Sequence record: MT129654.1
Length of the DNA stretch: 64,000 nucleotides
From: Escherichia phage MN04
Direction: 5' to 3' (one strand)
Below the pieces are notes generated by a model. That model saw nothing but the letters and a program-made list of their open reading frames with translations. It made no database searches and was not told the origin of the DNA. Shown here in pieces: positions 19,205 to 60,058 of this stretch (position 1 is its first letter; every line of letters starts with the position of its first letter). The translations under genes and the position numbers were made by a program.

Positions 19205-19264
19205 GCAATAGAAATTTATTAAAAATAGTGTATAATGTACCTACATTCACTTGAGGAACAGATA

Positions 19265-20938
19265 ATGAAAAAGGTTGTTATTTTAGGCGCAGGTCTTGGC
19301 TCACGGTTGTATCCAATTACTAACGAAATCCCGAAGGTATTGGTTAACTATAAACAACATACGGTATTAAAGCATTTGTATGATTTGTATAGTAACCAAT
19401 CAGATGAAATTATTCTGGTTATTCACAGCAAATTTAACGACCTCGTTAAAGGCTATATTAAATCCATTAACATGATTACTGGTGATAAGCCTAAATTCAC
19501 TATTCGTAACGTTGATGTTGCTAATGGTTCAGCTCATGCTATCGATTGCATTGCCGAAGATATCATTGGCCATAACGTCCTGTTTAACTGGTGTGACATC
19601 ATTCCTGAAGGTCATAAAGTTGAGTGGGGTAACGACTACTGTTATACCTATGGAACTGACTGTCGTTTTACATTTGAAGAACCGTACTTACGTGAAATTG
19701 GCACTGGTGGTGGCGTAGTTGGTTTATATCAGGTGGCTAATTGGACAGGTTTCGACCGTTCTAATTACGGTGAAGACCTTGCTGATAACCTGGATTCAAT
19801 GGTCTATTTGACTGAACGTAAACTGGACTTTGTAGTTGATGTCGGTGACAAATTGAAACTGGCTAAGGCCCATGAAGATTCTGAAATTAACCGTGAATTT
19901 AATAAATTAGAATTCACCGAGAATCTGGCTATTAAAGTACCAACTAACGAATTAGGTAAAGAAATTCAATCTAAAGAAATCAATTGGTATAATTCTATTG
20001 ATTCTGAATTCGTTCCTAGCATTGTAGACTTTTCTCCAGGCGAATTCATTAAAATGGAACGTATCTTTGGTCGGACCATGGCAGATGCCTACCGGTTTAT
20101 GTCCAAAGAAACTAAAGTCCTCATGGTTTATAAGGTCATTAGTGCATTACGTTCATTCGGTGGAACTATTGATAATCCGTCCGATGAACAATGGTATTCC
20201 GATGTTAAGAAAGAAGTATTGGACAAGGTCCTTATTCGTAATGCTTCTATTGCCGGATTGATTGAAGGCTTTGCTCCACAAGGCATTACCCATGTTAACG
20301 ATTTCAAAGTAGGCGACCCTGAAAAACTTCTCCGCCATGCACTAGAAATTCTGTCTGAACATAAAGAACCGTACCAACTTATTCATGGCGACCCACACTA
20401 CAGTAATATTATGCTGTCGGACGAAGGTGATATTAAAATCATCGACCCACGTGGTTATTTCGGTAATAGTTCTAAAGGCCCTGCGATTTATGATGAAGCT
20501 AAGGTGCTTTATTCTATCGATGGCTATGACAAATTTAACTCAGACCCTCTATGGGGTGGATTAACCCGTAACGGAACTCGTGTATTCGTTGATATTGAAA
20601 AGGTTATGCCTTTAGACGATATCCCTATGTGCACATTTAAGCACAAGCTCTGGATTGCTGTTATTTGGATGGCTCTGGCAGGTTACTTTAAGAATAACCC
20701 TCTGAAAGCTCTGGGTGCTTATTATAACGGTTTGTACCAACTGAGTGTGCTGCTGAAGCGGCATCCTCGTAAGCGTAAGCTTATTACAGGTGAATTTGTC
20801 GATGAAGTTCGTGACCCTATCACGGCCCAAATTATTACTCGTTGTCCTGATAAGTGGGTTTTGCTTGACCAGGAAACTGGTGTAAAATATAAACCTACAG
20901 GTTCTACTGAACTCCACAAACAATGGAAGAAAATTTAA
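19265..20938 (+). CDS. bifunctional nucleotidyltransferase / APH-choline-kinase-like kinase fusion
   Basis: N-terminal ILGAGLGSRLYPIT (sugar-1-P/LicC-type nucleotidyltransferase G-x-G-x-R motif); C-terminal LIHGDPHYSNIM...IIDPRGYFG (Brenner kinase motif plus metal-binding DxG). Function inferred from motifs only. Confidence 0.6.
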   Translation: MKKVVILGAGLGSRLYPITNEIPKVLVNYKQHTVLKHLYDLYSNQSDEIILVIHSKFNDLVKGYIKSINMITGDKPKFTIRNVDVANGSAHAIDCIAEDIIGHNVLFNWCDIIPEGHKVEWGNDYCYTYGTDCRFTFEEPYLREIGTGGGVVGLYQVANWTGFDRSNYGEDLADNLDSMVYLTERKLDFVVDVGDKLKLAKAHEDSEINREFNKLEFTENLAIKVPTNELGKEIQSKEINWYNSIDSEFVPSIVDFSPGEFIKMERIFGRTMADAYRFMSKETKVLMVYKVISALRSFGGTIDNPSDEQWYSDVKKEVLDKVLIRNASIAGLIEGFAPQGITHVNDFKVGDPEKLLRHALEILSEHKEPYQLIHGDPHYSNIMLSDEGDIKIIDPRGYFGNSSKGPAIYDEAKVLYSIDGYDKFNSDPLWGGLTRNGTRVFVDIEKVMPLDDIPMCTFKHKLWIAVIWMALAGYFKNNPLKALGAYYNGLYQLSVLLKRHPRKRKLITGEFVDEVRDPITAQIITRCPDKWVLLDQETGVKYKPTGSTELHKQWKKI

Positions 20939-21321
20939 TGTCGCATCGAGTAGAAAATAAGCCACATTTATGTTTTGATATCGATAACACAATCACGATT
21001 TGGAACCATGACCGTGATTATGAGAACTTTAAACCGGACACCGAAATGGTGTCCATGATTAATAAGCTTTATGATGAAGGGTACGAGATTACATTGTTCA
21101 CCGCGCGTGGCATGACTTCATGTGGCCCAGGTCGAATCTTGGTTGAAGTAGTTCCTGCATTGGTTAAGAACCTTGAAAAGATTGGATTGAAATATCATAA
21201 TCTGCTTACACATAAGCCGAGTTATACTTTTATCATCGATGACCGAGCAATCCGTCCCGACCACTTTAAAGAAATGGTTCGTGAAGGAACTCTTGATAGT
21301 TATAAGGCCTATCATCCATGA
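20938..21321 (+). CDS. HAD-superfamily phosphatase-like protein
   Basis: LCFDIDNTIT (HAD motif I DxDxT) and TLFTARG; small KdsC-sized protein. Confidence 0.5.
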   Translation: MSHRVENKPHLCFDIDNTITIWNHDRDYENFKPDTEMVSMINKLYDEGYEITLFTARGMTSCGPGRILVEVVPALVKNLEKIGLKYHNLLTHKPSYTFIIDDRAIRPDHFKEMVREGTLDSYKAYHP

Positions 21322-21854
21322 ATCCAAAAATCATTGTTATAGACGGCCCGGATAATTCCGGGAAGTCCACTTTAATTAAAAATCTGTTATCCAATAAGAA
21401 ATACCGCCTTATTGATTTTCCTAAAAAGATTAATGGTAAGTGTATTTCATTAGGAACTGATAACGATAAGGCTTTAGTTGAAACTCTGTATAAGTTTTTA
21501 GACCCTAATTTCGTTTATATCCTTGACCGTGGTTATCCAAGTAATATTGTTTACTCAGGATTCCTTCGTGGTGAAATGGACCCTTATGTAGAACTGGAAG
21601 ATTGGAAAGGGTTTAAATCTGAATTTAACGTTATCGAGGTTATTTTAACTCGCAATCCATTAGACGAAGACTTCGAAGACGACCTTATTAAATTAACCAA
21701 AGATGAGTTCAACCTAACTATCCGGCAATACGAAACATGTTTTGAAAACGTGTTTAAAATCTTAAATCATGACGGCCATAATAATTTGCTTAATGTTGAT
21801 ATGGTAGAATTAAAACGTCTGAACGAATATATTGAAAATAAGGTGAATAGATGA
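21318..21854 (+). CDS. P-loop small-molecule/nucleotide kinase-like protein
   Basis: Walker A IVIDGPDNSGKSTL at the N-terminus; 178 aa. Confidence 0.5.
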   Translation: MNPKIIVIDGPDNSGKSTLIKNLLSNKKYRLIDFPKKINGKCISLGTDNDKALVETLYKFLDPNFVYILDRGYPSNIVYSGFLRGEMDPYVELEDWKGFKSEFNVIEVILTRNPLDEDFEDDLIKLTKDEFNLTIRQYETCFENVFKILNHDGHNNLLNVDMVELKRLNEYIENKVNR

Positions 21855-22549
21855 AACACATTACCGCTGTTAGTTTTGAAAATGCATTTAAACAAATGAA
21901 CGAAGAAATCCTGGAAGCTCCACAGTTTGCAGTTGATTCTCGTATCGGACGTTGTTATGAAATTGGTTCTGCTTCGGTAGAAGTACTGGATGCAAGCACC
22001 TATAAATTCACCGATCCTCGTATTAATCGTATTAGTTATGAATATGCCGAATCTTTCTGGAAGTTTATGATTTCTGGTGGTACTGACGCCGCCGAAGCAT
22101 TTAAGGAATACCCTAATGTTGCTAAGTTCATTGATAAGCCGAAAAGTGACGTATTGCCTGCAAACTTCAACACTTTCTATGGACCTCGAATTGTGGCCCA
22201 ACTCCCAGCCTTACTTAAAGAGCTTAAAGAAAAGCCTAACTCAAGACGCGTTGTGTTCCAGATTCTCCAAGAACAAGACCAAGCCCTCCTTGATTCTGAC
22301 GAATCCTTAGAATATCCTTGCACCGATTCGGTAACGTATTATATTCGTGATGGACGTCTGTATGCACACACTCATATGCGTTCACAGAACTGTGCTATTG
22401 TTATGCAGCTGGATTTCTATCTGCAGGGTAAACTGATGGCATTTATTGCTGAACAGTGCGGTGTCGGTTTAGGTACATATTCCCACACCATGGTAAGTGC
22501 ACACGTGTTTGAACGTGATTTTGACTACGTCCGAGGTTTCCTGAAATGA
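21851..22549 (+). CDS. 42: thymidylate-synthase-family pyrimidine hydroxymethylase (divergent dCMP hydroxymethylase, gp42 position)
   Basis: NSRR and CTDSVTYYIRDGRL...MRSQN align to the catalytic-Cys region of recalled T4 gp42, at lower identity than the neighbouring core genes. Confidence 0.6.
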   Translation: MKHITAVSFENAFKQMNEEILEAPQFAVDSRIGRCYEIGSASVEVLDASTYKFTDPRINRISYEYAESFWKFMISGGTDAAEAFKEYPNVAKFIDKPKSDVLPANFNTFYGPRIVAQLPALLKELKEKPNSRRVVFQILQEQDQALLDSDESLEYPCTDSVTYYIRDGRLYAHTHMRSQNCAIVMQLDFYLQGKLMAFIAEQCGVGLGTYSHTMVSAHVFERDFDYVRGFLK

Positions 22550-23439
22550 GTTTGTTTATCGTTCCTATTTTCAGTATGCGTAGTTACGAAACAGGTGAAT
22601 ATGCCGTCCTTAAGGACGGCAATTTTCAACTCCATTTAAATCGTGCTCGTCCAGGTGATTATCTGGCTTATCCTAGAAATTCGAGCGATATCAAAGAATG
22701 CATTGAATTATTCCCAGATCTGAATTTCGTACCACTTTGGTATAAAGAAAATGCTTATGAAACCCGTAAACATTTCTGGTCTGAAAATGAGTTTGTAGTC
22801 GATTCACTAATCGAATACTACGATTGCTCAGGACTGGTAACCGATATCACTGGTTACGATGGTGCTCATACTGTACAATTCAACTTTAATATCACAATGG
22901 ACCCTGAAGTTCCTCGTTATTATATCGACGAGTTCATTGATATTGATGTGGCTTCAGTTGAACGTTCACTTTATACTACAGTCCTGAATCAATGCCAGAA
23001 AGACGTCTTGGTGTCACGAGGTGCATCCTCTGATAAGATTTTTGTAGACCAAAAGGTAATTAATCCTGCAGTAATTGAGCGTTACTCTGAAGGTCTAGCG
23101 CCTATTAAAATTGATGGTATTTTCCATCCATTCCGTATTTCAGATAAGTGTTATCAATTCGAAAGAGTTGTAGACCAAGCTGCCGCTGAAGGTGCTCGTC
23201 TTTATATCACCGATCCGAATGATTCATTTAAGCGCGAAGACTATCGTCCTGATGTAGAGATTATTAAATTCAAACCAAGTAAGGTTGAATATTATCAAAT
23301 TCTGAAATCAAGACCACATATCATTTATCATGAGAACCCAGGTTTAGTATTCCATCCTGGTCTGGCTGAATTCATTTATTTCGGTGCCAATATTCATTCT
23401 GAATACGAAATGCCACGTTATGAGGACGTAGTATGCTAG
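22546..23439 (+). CDS. hypothetical protein; candidate DNA glycosyl/modification transferase (occupies the T4 beta-gt position)
   Basis: 297-aa ORF between the gp42-like gene and uvsX; functional call is by synteny only, no recognised motif. Confidence 0.35.
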   Translation: MSLFIVPIFSMRSYETGEYAVLKDGNFQLHLNRARPGDYLAYPRNSSDIKECIELFPDLNFVPLWYKENAYETRKHFWSENEFVVDSLIEYYDCSGLVTDITGYDGAHTVQFNFNITMDPEVPRYYIDEFIDIDVASVERSLYTTVLNQCQKDVLVSRGASSDKIFVDQKVINPAVIERYSEGLAPIKIDGIFHPFRISDKCYQFERVVDQAAAEGARLYITDPNDSFKREDYRPDVEIIKFKPSKVEYYQILKSRPHIIYHENPGLVFHPGLAEFIYFGANIHSEYEMPRYEDVVC

Positions 23440-31059: not shown

Positions 31060-31064
31060 TTATA

Positions 31065-31088
31065 AGGAACCTTCGGGTTCCTTTTTTC
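31065..31088 (+). terminator. intrinsic terminator after soc
   Basis: AGGAACCTTCGGGTTCCT hairpin plus T6. Confidence 0.7.
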
Positions 31089-48420: not shown

Positions 48421-48645
48421 ATGAAACTTTTTAAAGATATCGCAGTTGGTGAAAAATTTGTCTTAGGTAATGGTCAACAATTGATTCGCATTTCTCCTTT
48501 AATGGATAATAGTGAGCGGCCCATTCGTACTGAAAACTGTTTGGATTATCCTTTTTATCAAAAGCGTTTTGCTATTGAAAATAATACCGAGTGTTTCACG
48601 GTTGATGAACTGATGGAATTATCAGAAGAAGTCGACTCTGAATAA
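48421..48645 (+). CDS. hypothetical protein (74 aa)
   Basis: CTGAGGAAAATATT-ATG TIR. Confidence 0.4.
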   Translation: MKLFKDIAVGEKFVLGNGQQLIRISPLMDNSERPIRTENCLDYPFYQKRFAIENNTECFTVDELMELSEEVDSE

Positions 48646-48659
48646 TTGAGGAAAATATT

Positions 48660-49004
48660 ATGTCTAAAGTATTTTTTGGTAATTCTAAAGTTATGTTCTT
48701 TGAGCAACTCAGTCTTAAAGAGGCATTGGCAGCCTTCAATCAAGAACTGGTTACTGGGTTAGATTCAAAAACTATGGCAAGTGCGGATTTCGTTTTCGTT
48801 CAAGACCCGGATACAGGGTTTTATCGATTCATCAAATTCCGTATGAGCATGGACCCTGACTATCGTAGTGCTTACTATGTGAGTTACGAAAATGTTATCG
48901 AAGAATTACGTGATACCTATGGACGTGCTTTGAACCCACTGAATAAGGTTTATAATGCGTCCTTTTATACGAGCGGATTTATTTTAGAACAGCTACAAAA
49001 ATAG
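48660..49004 (+). CDS. hypothetical protein (114 aa)
   Basis: TTGAGGAAAATATT-ATG TIR. Confidence 0.45.
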   Translation: MSKVFFGNSKVMFFEQLSLKEALAAFNQELVTGLDSKTMASADFVFVQDPDTGFYRFIKFRMSMDPDYRSAYYVSYENVIEELRDTYGRALNPLNKVYNASFYTSGFILEQLQK

Positions 49005-49032
49005 TTTACAACCTCGAGAATCATGTTATAAT
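49004..49032 (+). promoter_or_regulatory. early promoter, PeSL-like
   Basis: GTTTAC, 17 nt, TATAAT; flanking near-palindrome GAGAATCAT/ATGGTTCTC. Confidence 0.55.
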
Positions 49033-49081
49033 GGTTCTCGTTGACTGGATAACAAAACATTAATCTACTGAGGAAATTGAT

Positions 49082-49531
49082 ATGAATACTTATATGACTC
49101 GCGGTAACGTTCTGTCTGCTGGTGCTACTACTGTTGCTTATGTTAAGAATGGCGAATACCAAAATGGTAAGCCTTCTAAAGAAATCTCAGCCCAGCCAGG
49201 CTTCTACTTCTTTGTTAAAGGTGAAGCAGATTCTCGTGTCGTAGCCGCTCGCTTTTATGTCGGCAACCAACGTTCAGCTCAAGGTCTTGATGGTATTGTG
49301 GCTAACATTCGTAAGAAACGTTCGCAATCAGCTCGTACTATGGCTGTGAATGGTGTAGTGTATGAAGTTCTTTATGTACCTGCTTCTAAAATGAAACCAC
49401 TGACTACAGGTTTTGGTAAGGGTCAAATTGCAATGGCTTTCACTCGCAACCATAGTTCCGACCTTCAGACCCTGGAAGAAATGAACCGCATGTTGGCTGA
49501 TAACTTTAAATTCGTTCTGCAGGCTTACTAA
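49082..49531 (+). CDS. ndd: nucleoid disruption protein Ndd
   Basis: 149 aa; RFYVGNQRS...[17 protein letters not shown]...TRNH...[19 protein letters not shown] matches recalled T4 Ndd. Confidence 0.85.
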
Positions 49532-49608
49532 TGAGCAATTTCCATAACGAACATGTGATGCAGTTCTATCGTAACAATCTTAAAACTAAAGGCGTCTTCG
49601 GACGCTAA
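49531..49608 (+). CDS. stp: Stp peptide (anticodon-nuclease activator / restriction inhibitor)
   Basis: 25 codons, [25 protein letters not shown], essentially identical to the recalled 26-residue T4 Stp; start overlaps the ndd stop. Confidence 0.8.
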
Positions 49609-49618
49609 TGAGGAAAAT

Positions 49619-49780
49619 ATGATTATCCTAGTTTTTATTGAACTTATTATGGCTATGGTTTGTTCAGTTTGCTTCTTTTTAGGTGTATGGACCCCTGGTC
49701 CGGTATTCTTAAGTTTTCTGTTTATTGGCTGGGTTCTTTCTACTTTTGTCGGTTTACTTAAGACGATTAAAAATGATTAA
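49619..49780 (+). CDS. small membrane peptide (53 aa); Ac-like by size and position
   Basis: AGGAAAAT-ATG; hydrophobic core; sits between stp and 52 where T4 has ac. Confidence 0.35.
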   Translation: MIILVFIELIMAMVCSVCFFLGVWTPGPVFLSFLFIGWVLSTFVGLLKTIKND

Positions 49781-49917
49781 GAAAATCTTGGGCTACTCGG
49801 TAGCCCTTGCTGCTTTATTGGTAGCACTGTATTATGGAGTAATATTCGGTCTTATCCAAGTTGTGCTTTTTATTTCCGATGTTATTATGGTTATTCATTC
49901 ACTAGTATGGTAAAATT

Positions 49918-51297
49918 ATGGCTGATGTAATTGATACCCTTTTTAAACAATCCTTAGATGTTTACGATGATGCTTTTACTCGTCGTGACTTAAAAAGCAT
50001 TATCGACAATGAAGCGCTGGCTTATGCAATGTATACTGTCGAAAACCGCGCCATTCCAAATATGATTGATGGCTTTAAACCTGTACAACGTTTTGTAGTT
50101 GCTCGTTGTCTTGATATGGCTCGTGGTAATAAAGAAAAATTCCACAAACTAGCTTCTATTGCAGGTGGTGTAGCCGACCTTGGATATCACCACGGTGAAG
50201 GTTCTGCTCAAGAAGCAGGTGCTCTGATGGCTAACACATGGAACAACAACTTCCCACTGTTGGATGGCCAAGGCAACTTTGGTTCTCGATTAGTTCAAAA
50301 GGCTGCAGCCTCTCGTTATATTTTTGCACGAATTGGAACTAATTTCGCAAAGGTTTATAAGGATACAGAATATGCTCCGGTTCATGCGGATGTCGAACAT
50401 AAGCCACCAGCTTTTTATCTGCCTATTATTCCTACTGTTCTTCTTAATGGTATTTCCGGTATTGCGACTGGTTATGCAACTAATATTCTTCCTCATAGTT
50501 TTGATTCTGTTAAGAAAGCTGTATTGCAGGTTCTTCAAGAAAAACGCGTAACCAAGCCTAAGGTGGCTTATCCGGAATTCCGTGGCGATGTGGTTGAGAT
50601 TGAACCAGGTAGTTATGAACTACGAGGCACGTATAAGTTCACATCTCGAACCCAAATGCATATCACAGAAATCCCGTACAAATACGACCGTGAAACGTAC
50701 GTGGCCAAGGTACTGGACCCTTTAGAAGACAAAGGGTATATCACGTATGATGACGACTGTGACGAGAATGGTTTCGGCTTCAAGGTTAAGATTCGTAAAG
50801 AATATGAATTGCCTACTGAAGAAAATAAGAAGCATGAAAAAATCATGAAGGACTTCGGGTTAATCGAACGTCGTTCGCAAAACCTGACCGTCATTAATGA
50901 GAAAGGTAAACTTAAGGTTTACGAAGATGTAGTTGAACTGATTCGTGATTTCGTTGAGGTCCGTAAGACCTTTGTACAAAAACGTATTGATGGTAAAATC
51001 ATCGAAACCGAAGAAGCTTTCAAACTGGCATTGGCTAAAGCTACATTCATTAAAGATGTTATTGATGGTGTGGTGGTTATCCAAGGTAAGACCCGTAAAG
51101 TTTTAACCGAAGAATTGGCCAGCAATAAAGTCTACGGTGAATACGCTGATAAACTCGTAGCAATGAATATTTTCCATATCACGTCCGATGAAGCTAAGAA
51201 ACTGGCTTTGGAAGCCAAGGCTAAGAAAGAAGAGCACCAATACTGGAAAACCACTGATGTTGTAACTGAGTATGTTAAAGATTTGGAGGCTCTATGA
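49918..51297 (+). CDS. 52: DNA topoisomerase II medium subunit gp52 (GyrA-like)
   Basis: 459 aa; ENRAIPNMIDGFKPVQRF (GyrA-type segment). Confidence 0.9.
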   Translation: MADVIDTLFKQSLDVYDDAFTRRDLKSIIDNEALAYAMYTVENRAIPNMIDGFKPVQRFVVARCLDMARGNKEKFHKLASIAGGVADLGYHHGEGSAQEAGALMANTWNNNFPLLDGQGNFGSRLVQKAAASRYIFARIGTNFAKVYKDTEYAPVHADVEHKPPAFYLPIIPTVLLNGISGIATGYATNILPHSFDSVKKAVLQVLQEKRVTKPKVAYPEFRGDVVEIEPGSYELRGTYKFTSRTQMHITEIPYKYDRETYVAKVLDPLEDKGYITYDDDCDENGFGFKVKIRKEYELPTEENKKHEKIMKDFGLIERRSQNLTVINEKGKLKVYEDVVELIRDFVEVRKTFVQKRIDGKIIETEEAFKLALAKATFIKDVIDGVVVIQGKTRKVLTEELASNKVYGEYADKLVAMNIFHITSDEAKKLALEAKAKKEEHQYWKTTDVVTEYVKDLEAL

Positions 51298-51398
51298 GCC
51301 TTGGAGTCGAGTTCTTGTTACTCTGTATCTTTGCTGTTATCCTAGGCCTGGCGACAGGCTTAGCTATAGGTTTAATAGCAGCCCACTTTAAAAAGTAA
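51294..51398 (+). CDS. small hydrophobic peptide (34 aa)
   Basis: ATG overlapping the gene 52 stop; single predicted TM helix; followed by a terminator. Confidence 0.3.
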   Translation: MSLGVEFLLLCIFAVILGLATGLAIGLIAAHFKK

Positions 51399-51420
51399 GG
51401 AACCTTCGGGTTCCTTTTTG
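51398..51420 (+). terminator. intrinsic terminator after gene 52
   Basis: AGGAACCTTCGGGTTCCT hairpin plus T5 (same sequence as at 31065). Confidence 0.65.
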
Positions 51421-60033: not shown

Positions 60034-60058
60034 AAAAAAAGGAACCCGAAGGTTCCTT
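60034..60058 (-). terminator. intrinsic terminator after gene 35 (- strand)
   Basis: Reverse complement reads AAGGAACCTTCGGGTTCCTTTTTTT. Confidence 0.65.

Follow-up and report, generated by a model that had tools for sequence, protein, structure and literature searches.

Stp is a textbook example of a phage factor that counteracts restriction and is in turn sensed by an abortive-infection nuclease of the host. The T4 peptide is reported to be both necessary and sufficient for activation of the latent tRNA-Lys anticodon nuclease PrrC (PMC3014915, summarizing Penner et al. 1995), which is kept silent by the type Ic enzyme EcoprrI (PMC3014915, PMC1484252, PMC12707154). As described in PMC3014915, T4 Stp relieves restriction by EcoprrI and EcoR124I with modification unaffected, and the same account, citing Penner et al. 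1995, lists EcoKI and EcoBI as not inhibited, type Ia enzymes being spared. The functional determinant is assigned there to residues 1–18, with loss-of-function mutations clustering at residues 4–14, and deletion of the eight C-terminal codons is stated to reduce both activities only moderately (PMC3014915). Stp is classed as a delayed-early product of T4, together with Pnk and Rnl1 (PMC3014915), the two phage enzymes by which PrrC damage is repaired (PMC3014915, summarizing Amitsur et al.). The molecular mechanism of Stp and its mode of binding have been described as unknown (PMC12707154), and a search for solved structures returned no matching PDB chain at E ≤ 10.

The sequence analysed here, referred to as the window, is a stretch of 64,000 nucleotides from Escherichia phage MN04 (MT129654.1). 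Its positions 49000–50000 are 94–97% identical at the DNA level to Dhakavirus genomes, including NC-G, dhabil, JS10, CLB_P2 and IME08. The value for JS10, the nearest RefSeq relative, is 96.4%, and the JS10 locus has an identical architecture and encodes an identical 25-aa peptide from an identical CDS, to which RefSeq gives the name stp (YP_002922605.1, 'activator of host PrrC lysyl-tRNA endonuclease'). Nothing of substance distinguishes the two loci; the RefSeq record carries no annotation for the 53-aa ORF that follows stp. The 25-aa ORF of the window is very probably the orthologous stp of a Dhakavirus, a JS10/JS98-like T-even phage, expressed together with ndd and acting like T4 Stp.

Identification of stp and its place in the ndd–52 cluster

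The gene, consisting of 25 codons plus stop and starting with ATG, occupies positions 49531–49608 of the plus strand. It had been proposed in a first-pass annotation, and both translation and the ORF listing confirm it. The ATG (49531–49533) shares one base with the TAA stop codon of ndd (49529–49531) in a TAATG junction; this overlap had also been pointed out in the first-pass annotation, and T4 has the same arrangement. The TAA stop codon of stp is directly followed by an in-frame TGA. According to the ORF listing, no ORF of at least 20 aa overlaps these coordinates on the opposite strand, and 58 ORFs of at least 20 aa overlap the 4 kb stretch around stp. A lone ORF of 25 aa is therefore not significant, and the case for stp rests on homology.

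Alignment to T4 stp, which had been suggested as a check on the initial assignment, gave 25 identical residues out of 25 aligned (NC_000866, 165505–165585, 26 residues), and the T4 sequence assumed in that assignment proved to be right. The last residue of T4 Stp, Gln26, is absent from the window peptide, the CAG TGA found in T4 at codon 26 and the following triplet being replaced by TAA TGA, while the 18 N-terminal residues that form the functional determinant are unchanged. The peptide matches the Pfam family PF08133 (Anticodon nuclease activator family) over profile positions 1–25 of 26 with 72.1 bits (E = 2e-20; curated cutoff 25 bits) and PHROG 6763 ('activator of host PrrC lysyl-tRNA endonuclease') with E = 1.6e-20, and its length fits the 25–27 aa of the family members compared. 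A tblastn search of 50,697 records (2.3 Gb) returned matches in 820 phage records (best E = 6e-10), 438 of which reach at least 99% identity over the aligned stretch. As judged from these alignments and scores, the homology of the 25-aa ORF to the Stp family is far beyond chance.

Other Stp variants can be distinguished from that of the window, namely a T2 type (…NNLKNFGILGFKK), a Gaprivervirus/VR25 type (…QWHRHNLKLTGVFGRP) and the homologues of siphoviruses (Kagunavirus, Bas95, Tunavirus Lg3 and Tlsvirus Stevie). All of them score above the Pfam cutoff, are 25–27 aa long and have the core MS(N/S)(F/W)xNExVMQ(F/W)(Y/H)R in common with the window peptide, but they diverge from it in the C-terminal third and lie in different genomic contexts. 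The siphoviruses in question (Kagunavirus-like phages of ~44 kb, Bas95, Lg3 and Stevie) are unrelated to T4; their peptides of 25–26 aa exceed the PF08133 cutoff, and their stp genes have Shine–Dalgarno sequences of their own and are close to saturation at synonymous sites. A gene for polynucleotide kinase is located 1.2 kb downstream of the stp homologue in Stevie. Our literature searches yielded no paper on the siphovirus homologues, and just the GenBank record of Stevie notes the similarity.

Upstream of stp lies ndd (49082–49531, plus strand), encoding a nucleoid disruption protein of 149 aa that is recognized by PF06591 (Phage_T4_Ndd, 230 bits) and PHROG 1102, displays 63.5% amino-acid identity to T4 Ndd and has a JS10 counterpart annotated as ndd. 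Downstream, all on the plus strand, follow a hydrophobic ORF of 53 aa (49619–49780) in the position termed the ac slot, a 52.1 homologue (49773–49913) encoding a 46-aa membrane peptide with 91% amino-acid identity to T4 gp52.1 (PF24129, DUF7396, 78 bits), and gene 52 (49918–51297), encoding the 459-aa medium subunit of topoisomerase II (81% amino-acid identity to T4 gp52, in agreement with the JS10 annotation). The order ndd–stp–(ac slot)–52.1–52 is that of T4, and the window stp thus has the synteny of the T-even gene. In phage variants that carry an extra ORF before stp, the stop codon of that ORF again overlaps the stp start. Such is the case for a cysteine-rich hydrophobic ORF of 57 aa (MRTFFVMGYLFVLASL…CFERLCKMCGIYE), which is situated between ndd and stp in NC-G (732–905 of its locus) and JS98, occurs in some Dhakaviruses and Gapriverviruses, and is absent from the window.

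A sigma-70/T4-early-type promoter-like site on the plus strand (49005–49032), a pure consensus match composed of TTTACA, a 16-nt spacer and TATAAT, with TG, is located 50 nt upstream of ndd; with 11 of 12 hexamer matches it is the best such site in 48600–50200 and the likely promoter of an ndd–stp–53aa–52.1–52 transcript. From it, stp would be transcribed early together with ndd. The ribosome-binding signal of stp is a weak AGG ~8 nt upstream of the start codon, and translation would proceed by termination–reinitiation coupling at the TAATG junction, aided by this AGG. No Rfam family matched positions 48800–50100 at E ≤ 1.

The identification of stp is thus based on the ORF itself, sequence identity, family membership, synteny and purifying selection, and nothing in the sequence runs counter to it. 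The gene is already known, in that its family, its position, the phage genus and the annotation of the reference genome are all on record. It is also easily missed, as the first-pass annotation had warned: among 31 sampled full-length matches of 100% identity, taken as a spread sample of the tblastn matches, two name Stp and most have no CDS at this place, carrying just that of Ndd.

The ac slot and the mosaic surroundings of stp

The T4 locus (Stp, NP_049878) resembles that of the window in the position of stp after ndd, the TAATG overlap, the GAGGAAAATATG ribosome-binding region of the next gene and a C(UUCG)G hairpin, whereas the window copy lacks Gln26 and has another small membrane ORF after it in place of ac. 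The first-pass annotation had described this following gene as a small Ac-like membrane peptide; a small hydrophobic product is indeed encoded there, but its kinship with Ac is not upheld. Like T4 Ac (NP_049877), the 53-aa ORF fills the slot between stp and 52.1, has a similar length and hydrophobicity and overlaps the 52.1 start by 8 nt (ATGATTAA), yet no sequence relationship between the two was detectable. BLASTP produced no alignment with T4 Ac, the two proteins fall into separate families (PHROG 9347, of unknown function, for the 53-aa ORF and PHROG 2501 for Ac), comparison of the two small family alignments with hhalign gave a probability of 0.4%, and scans against PHROG, Pfam and NCBIfam found no relationship. 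Moreover, NC-G, JS98 and IME281 carry an Ac homologue (…TGETSVISQ…) and the 53-aa ORF side by side. Homology to Ac was rejected on these grounds, 'Ac-like' being a positional description only. The C-terminal Asn-Asp common to the 53-aa ORF and Ac is imposed by the 8 nt shared with the start of 52.1 (AATGATTAA). From these comparisons, the 53-aa ORF is most fittingly regarded as an alternative cassette of the ac slot, consisting of a small hydrophobic ORF.

The identity of codon 26 of stp went together with the occupant of the slot in ten IMG/VR loci that match T4-type stp at its 3′ end: TAA is present in five, each followed by the 53-aa ORF, and CAG in the other five, each followed by a T4-type ac. 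An exception is Bas38, a Tequatrovirus from a phage collection, in which the 26-aa form of Stp precedes a member of the 53-aa family; this member is annotated as 'acridine resistance protein', by position alone.

Neighbouring cassettes at the ndd–52 locus are visibly shuffled, with Ac-type or 53-aa-type ORFs, second stp types and stp remnants. Comparison of the window with T4 reveals a near-identical block of ~150 nt (49470–49625), which covers the final ~20 codons of ndd, all of stp and the sequence up to GAGGAAAATATG; it breaks off sharply where the ac-slot ORF begins, T4 identity returning exactly at the start of 52.1. Such a pattern of identity around the ac slot is that expected for cassette exchange via conserved flanks. 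In the JS98-type Dhakaviruses (JS98 and IME281), the region between ndd and the 53-aa ORF contains an inserted cassette with a full VR25-type stp, an Ac homologue and a 5′ fragment of 52.1 that is frameshifted; a GAGTAAT microhomology marks where this cassette meets a T4-type stp remnant lacking its start. The arrangement has the look of a relic left by illegitimate recombination at the locus. The window and JS10 have a single intact T4-type stp only, and the JS98-type cassette has no equivalent in the window.

Predicted action of the peptide

The two activities that the first-pass annotation ascribed to T4 Stp, inhibition of type Ic restriction and activation of PrrC, agree with the accounts given in PMC3014915, PMC1484252 and PMC12707154. 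By analogy, the 25-residue peptide of the window would bind host type Ic restriction–modification complexes of the EcoprrI and EcoR124I class, and its binding would block restriction and leave modification in place. In hosts carrying the prr locus, the perturbed type Ic complex would unmask the latent anticodon nuclease PrrC, which would then cut tRNA-Lys 5′ to the wobble base, and the phage polynucleotide kinase/phosphatase and RNA ligase 1 would in turn repair the tRNA. We infer the transcription and translation of the window stp as well as all of these biochemical steps, the action being deduced from identity with T4 Stp. The loss of Gln26 is expected to be harmless, since residues 1–25 are unchanged and, according to PMC3014915, a C-terminal deletion of eight codons lowers the T4 activities only moderately. 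Both genes of the tRNA-repair pair, pseT (Pnk) and rnlA (Rnl1), are present in JS10; their place is outside the 64 kb window, and their presence in the window phage is assumed from this relative.

Since a thymidylate-synthase-like (gp42-like) protein and a sugar nucleotidyltransferase/kinase are encoded in the window, the phage DNA is probably hydroxymethylcytosine-based and already withstands type I enzymes. If so, it is no clearer here than for T4 what selective benefit anti-restriction would bring. The corresponding module, at the place of T4 beta-gt/gene 42 (19235–23439, plus strand), comprises a 567-aa nucleotidyltransferase-plus-kinase, a 178-aa P-loop protein, the 232-aa gp42-like protein and an ORF of 297 aa with no Pfam match, and neighbouring genes are labelled thymidylate kinase and phosphoheptose isomerase in JS10. 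The module looks like one for hydroxymethylcytosine with a sugar modification other than T4 glucosylation.

Selection on stp and competing readings

The window stp differs from the Kagunavirus homologue by pS = 0.80 and pN = 0.057, synonymous sites being near saturation; the respective values are 0.71 and 0.105 for Bas95, and 0.70 and 0.127 for Yersinia phage P8, each of these homologues exceeding the Pfam threshold (simple Nei–Gojobori estimates, from which two T1-like comparisons with unreliable pS > 1 were left out). By these estimates, stp is under purifying selection across phage families and the peptide is the selected product. Conservation with respect to T4 extends to the nucleotide level, with 75 of 78 nucleotides and 23 of 25 codons identical. 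In comparison, the 563 sliding 25-codon windows of ndd, 52.1 and 52 have on average 10.3 and at most 21 codons identical to T4, and by this measure no other 25-codon stretch of the ndd–52 cluster is as conserved in nucleotide sequence as stp.

Codons 21–25 of stp and the first base of its stop codon make up a hairpin with a C(UUCG)G tetraloop, GGCGUC-UUCG-GACGCU (49591–49606, plus strand), with a folding energy of −9.3 kcal/mol (z = −4.4), equalled by none of 200 shuffles. The surrounding region of 141 nt folds no better than shuffles (z = −0.26), the local 16-nt hairpin alone standing out. The hairpin lies 4 nt upstream of the GAGG Shine–Dalgarno sequence of the next ORF and is not followed by a T-run. 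In phage G2540 the same hairpin is annotated as a 'putative transcriptional terminator'; its interpretation as an intrinsic plus-strand terminator was rejected here on account of the missing T-run and of a terminator-like match that the scan reported on the minus strand only. The CTTCGG motif itself occurs 40 times in the window for 19.6 expected, a count reached in none of 100 shuffles. Eleven CTTCGG sites have flanking stems of 4–8 bp, and three of them are an identical 20-mer, AAGGAACCTTCGGGTTCCTT, followed by a T-run and with the look of a terminator, at 31064–31083 (plus strand), 51397–51416 (plus strand) and 60039–60058 (minus strand). Among the stemmed sites, that of stp is unusual in its location within a coding sequence and its lack of a T-run.

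The extreme nucleotide conservation of stp might reflect selection on an RNA element, be it the C(UUCG)G hairpin or some more extended structure, instead of or besides the peptide, with the hairpin acting as an mRNA stabilizer, a processing barrier or a regulator of the ribosome-binding site of the downstream ORF. The excess of identical codons over the remainder of the cluster, the stability of the hairpin and the doubled frequency of CTTCGG in the window are in keeping with such a role, as are the VR25-type stp genes, which keep the hairpin with two stem substitutions that are G·U-compatible and synonymous. However, the hairpin accounts for just 16 of the 78 nt of stp, the whole 141-nt region shows neither exceptional folding nor an Rfam match, and the codon identity is equally explicable by recent interlineage recombination among T-even phages at a visibly mosaic locus. 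The hairpin is, moreover, confined to T4-type and VR25-type stp, the T2 and siphovirus copies being devoid of it; those of T2, Kagunavirus and Bas95 nevertheless retain the peptide with high pS and low pN, and the peptide is thus the primary selected product. Scans of IMG/VR with sequence patterns gave 10–11 loci each, too few for covariation statistics on the hairpin. An RNA element as the cause of the conservation is considered unlikely. Similarly doubtful is a dual function of stp, in which the segment would also serve as a functional RNA element or a recombination 'linker', promoting the exchange of cassettes and governing how the downstream membrane-peptide genes are expressed. The hairpin and the codon conservation leave room for a secondary RNA role or for recent recombination, with the identification of stp unchanged.

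Since start-less T4-type remnants are found in JS98 and IME281, fused to a frameshifted piece of 52.1 and preceded by a second stp that is intact and of a different type, dead copies of stp do exist in Dhakavirus, and the window gene, which displays the Dhakavirus CAG-to-TAA change at codon 26, might be a decaying pseudogene of this kind that is no longer translated. This is highly improbable, given that the ATG is intact, the TAATG junction is like that of T4, all 25 residues are as in T4 and the window locus, like that of JS10, has one stp only; the lost Gln26 belongs to a C-terminal part that is largely dispensable in the deletions described in PMC3014915. A translated and conserved peptide could, on the other hand, owe its maintenance to something besides the interplay with type Ic enzymes and PrrC, such as another host target, its effect on PrrC being incidental. 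Judging from T-even biology, the phage DNA is probably protected already by cytosine hypermodification, and the at least 99% identity of the aligned peptide in 438 records despite this probable protection suggests continuing selection; the mechanism of Stp, described as unknown in PMC12707154, would accommodate such a role. Nevertheless, our searches found no alternative target of Stp, and anti-restriction makes direct sense for the siphovirus homologues, the DNA of which is probably unmodified. A relevant role elsewhere is accordingly viewed as distinctly improbable, and action on type Ic complexes and PrrC, as in T4, is the preferred reading.

No new biology is implied by this assignment, because the same gene is annotated in the JS10 RefSeq record and has been characterized in T4 since 1988–1995. 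Recognition of stp matters chiefly for annotation, gene callers often skipping the gene because it is only 25–26 codons long, and it indicates that the phage from which the window derives is likely to trigger PrrC-type defence and to inhibit type Ic restriction.
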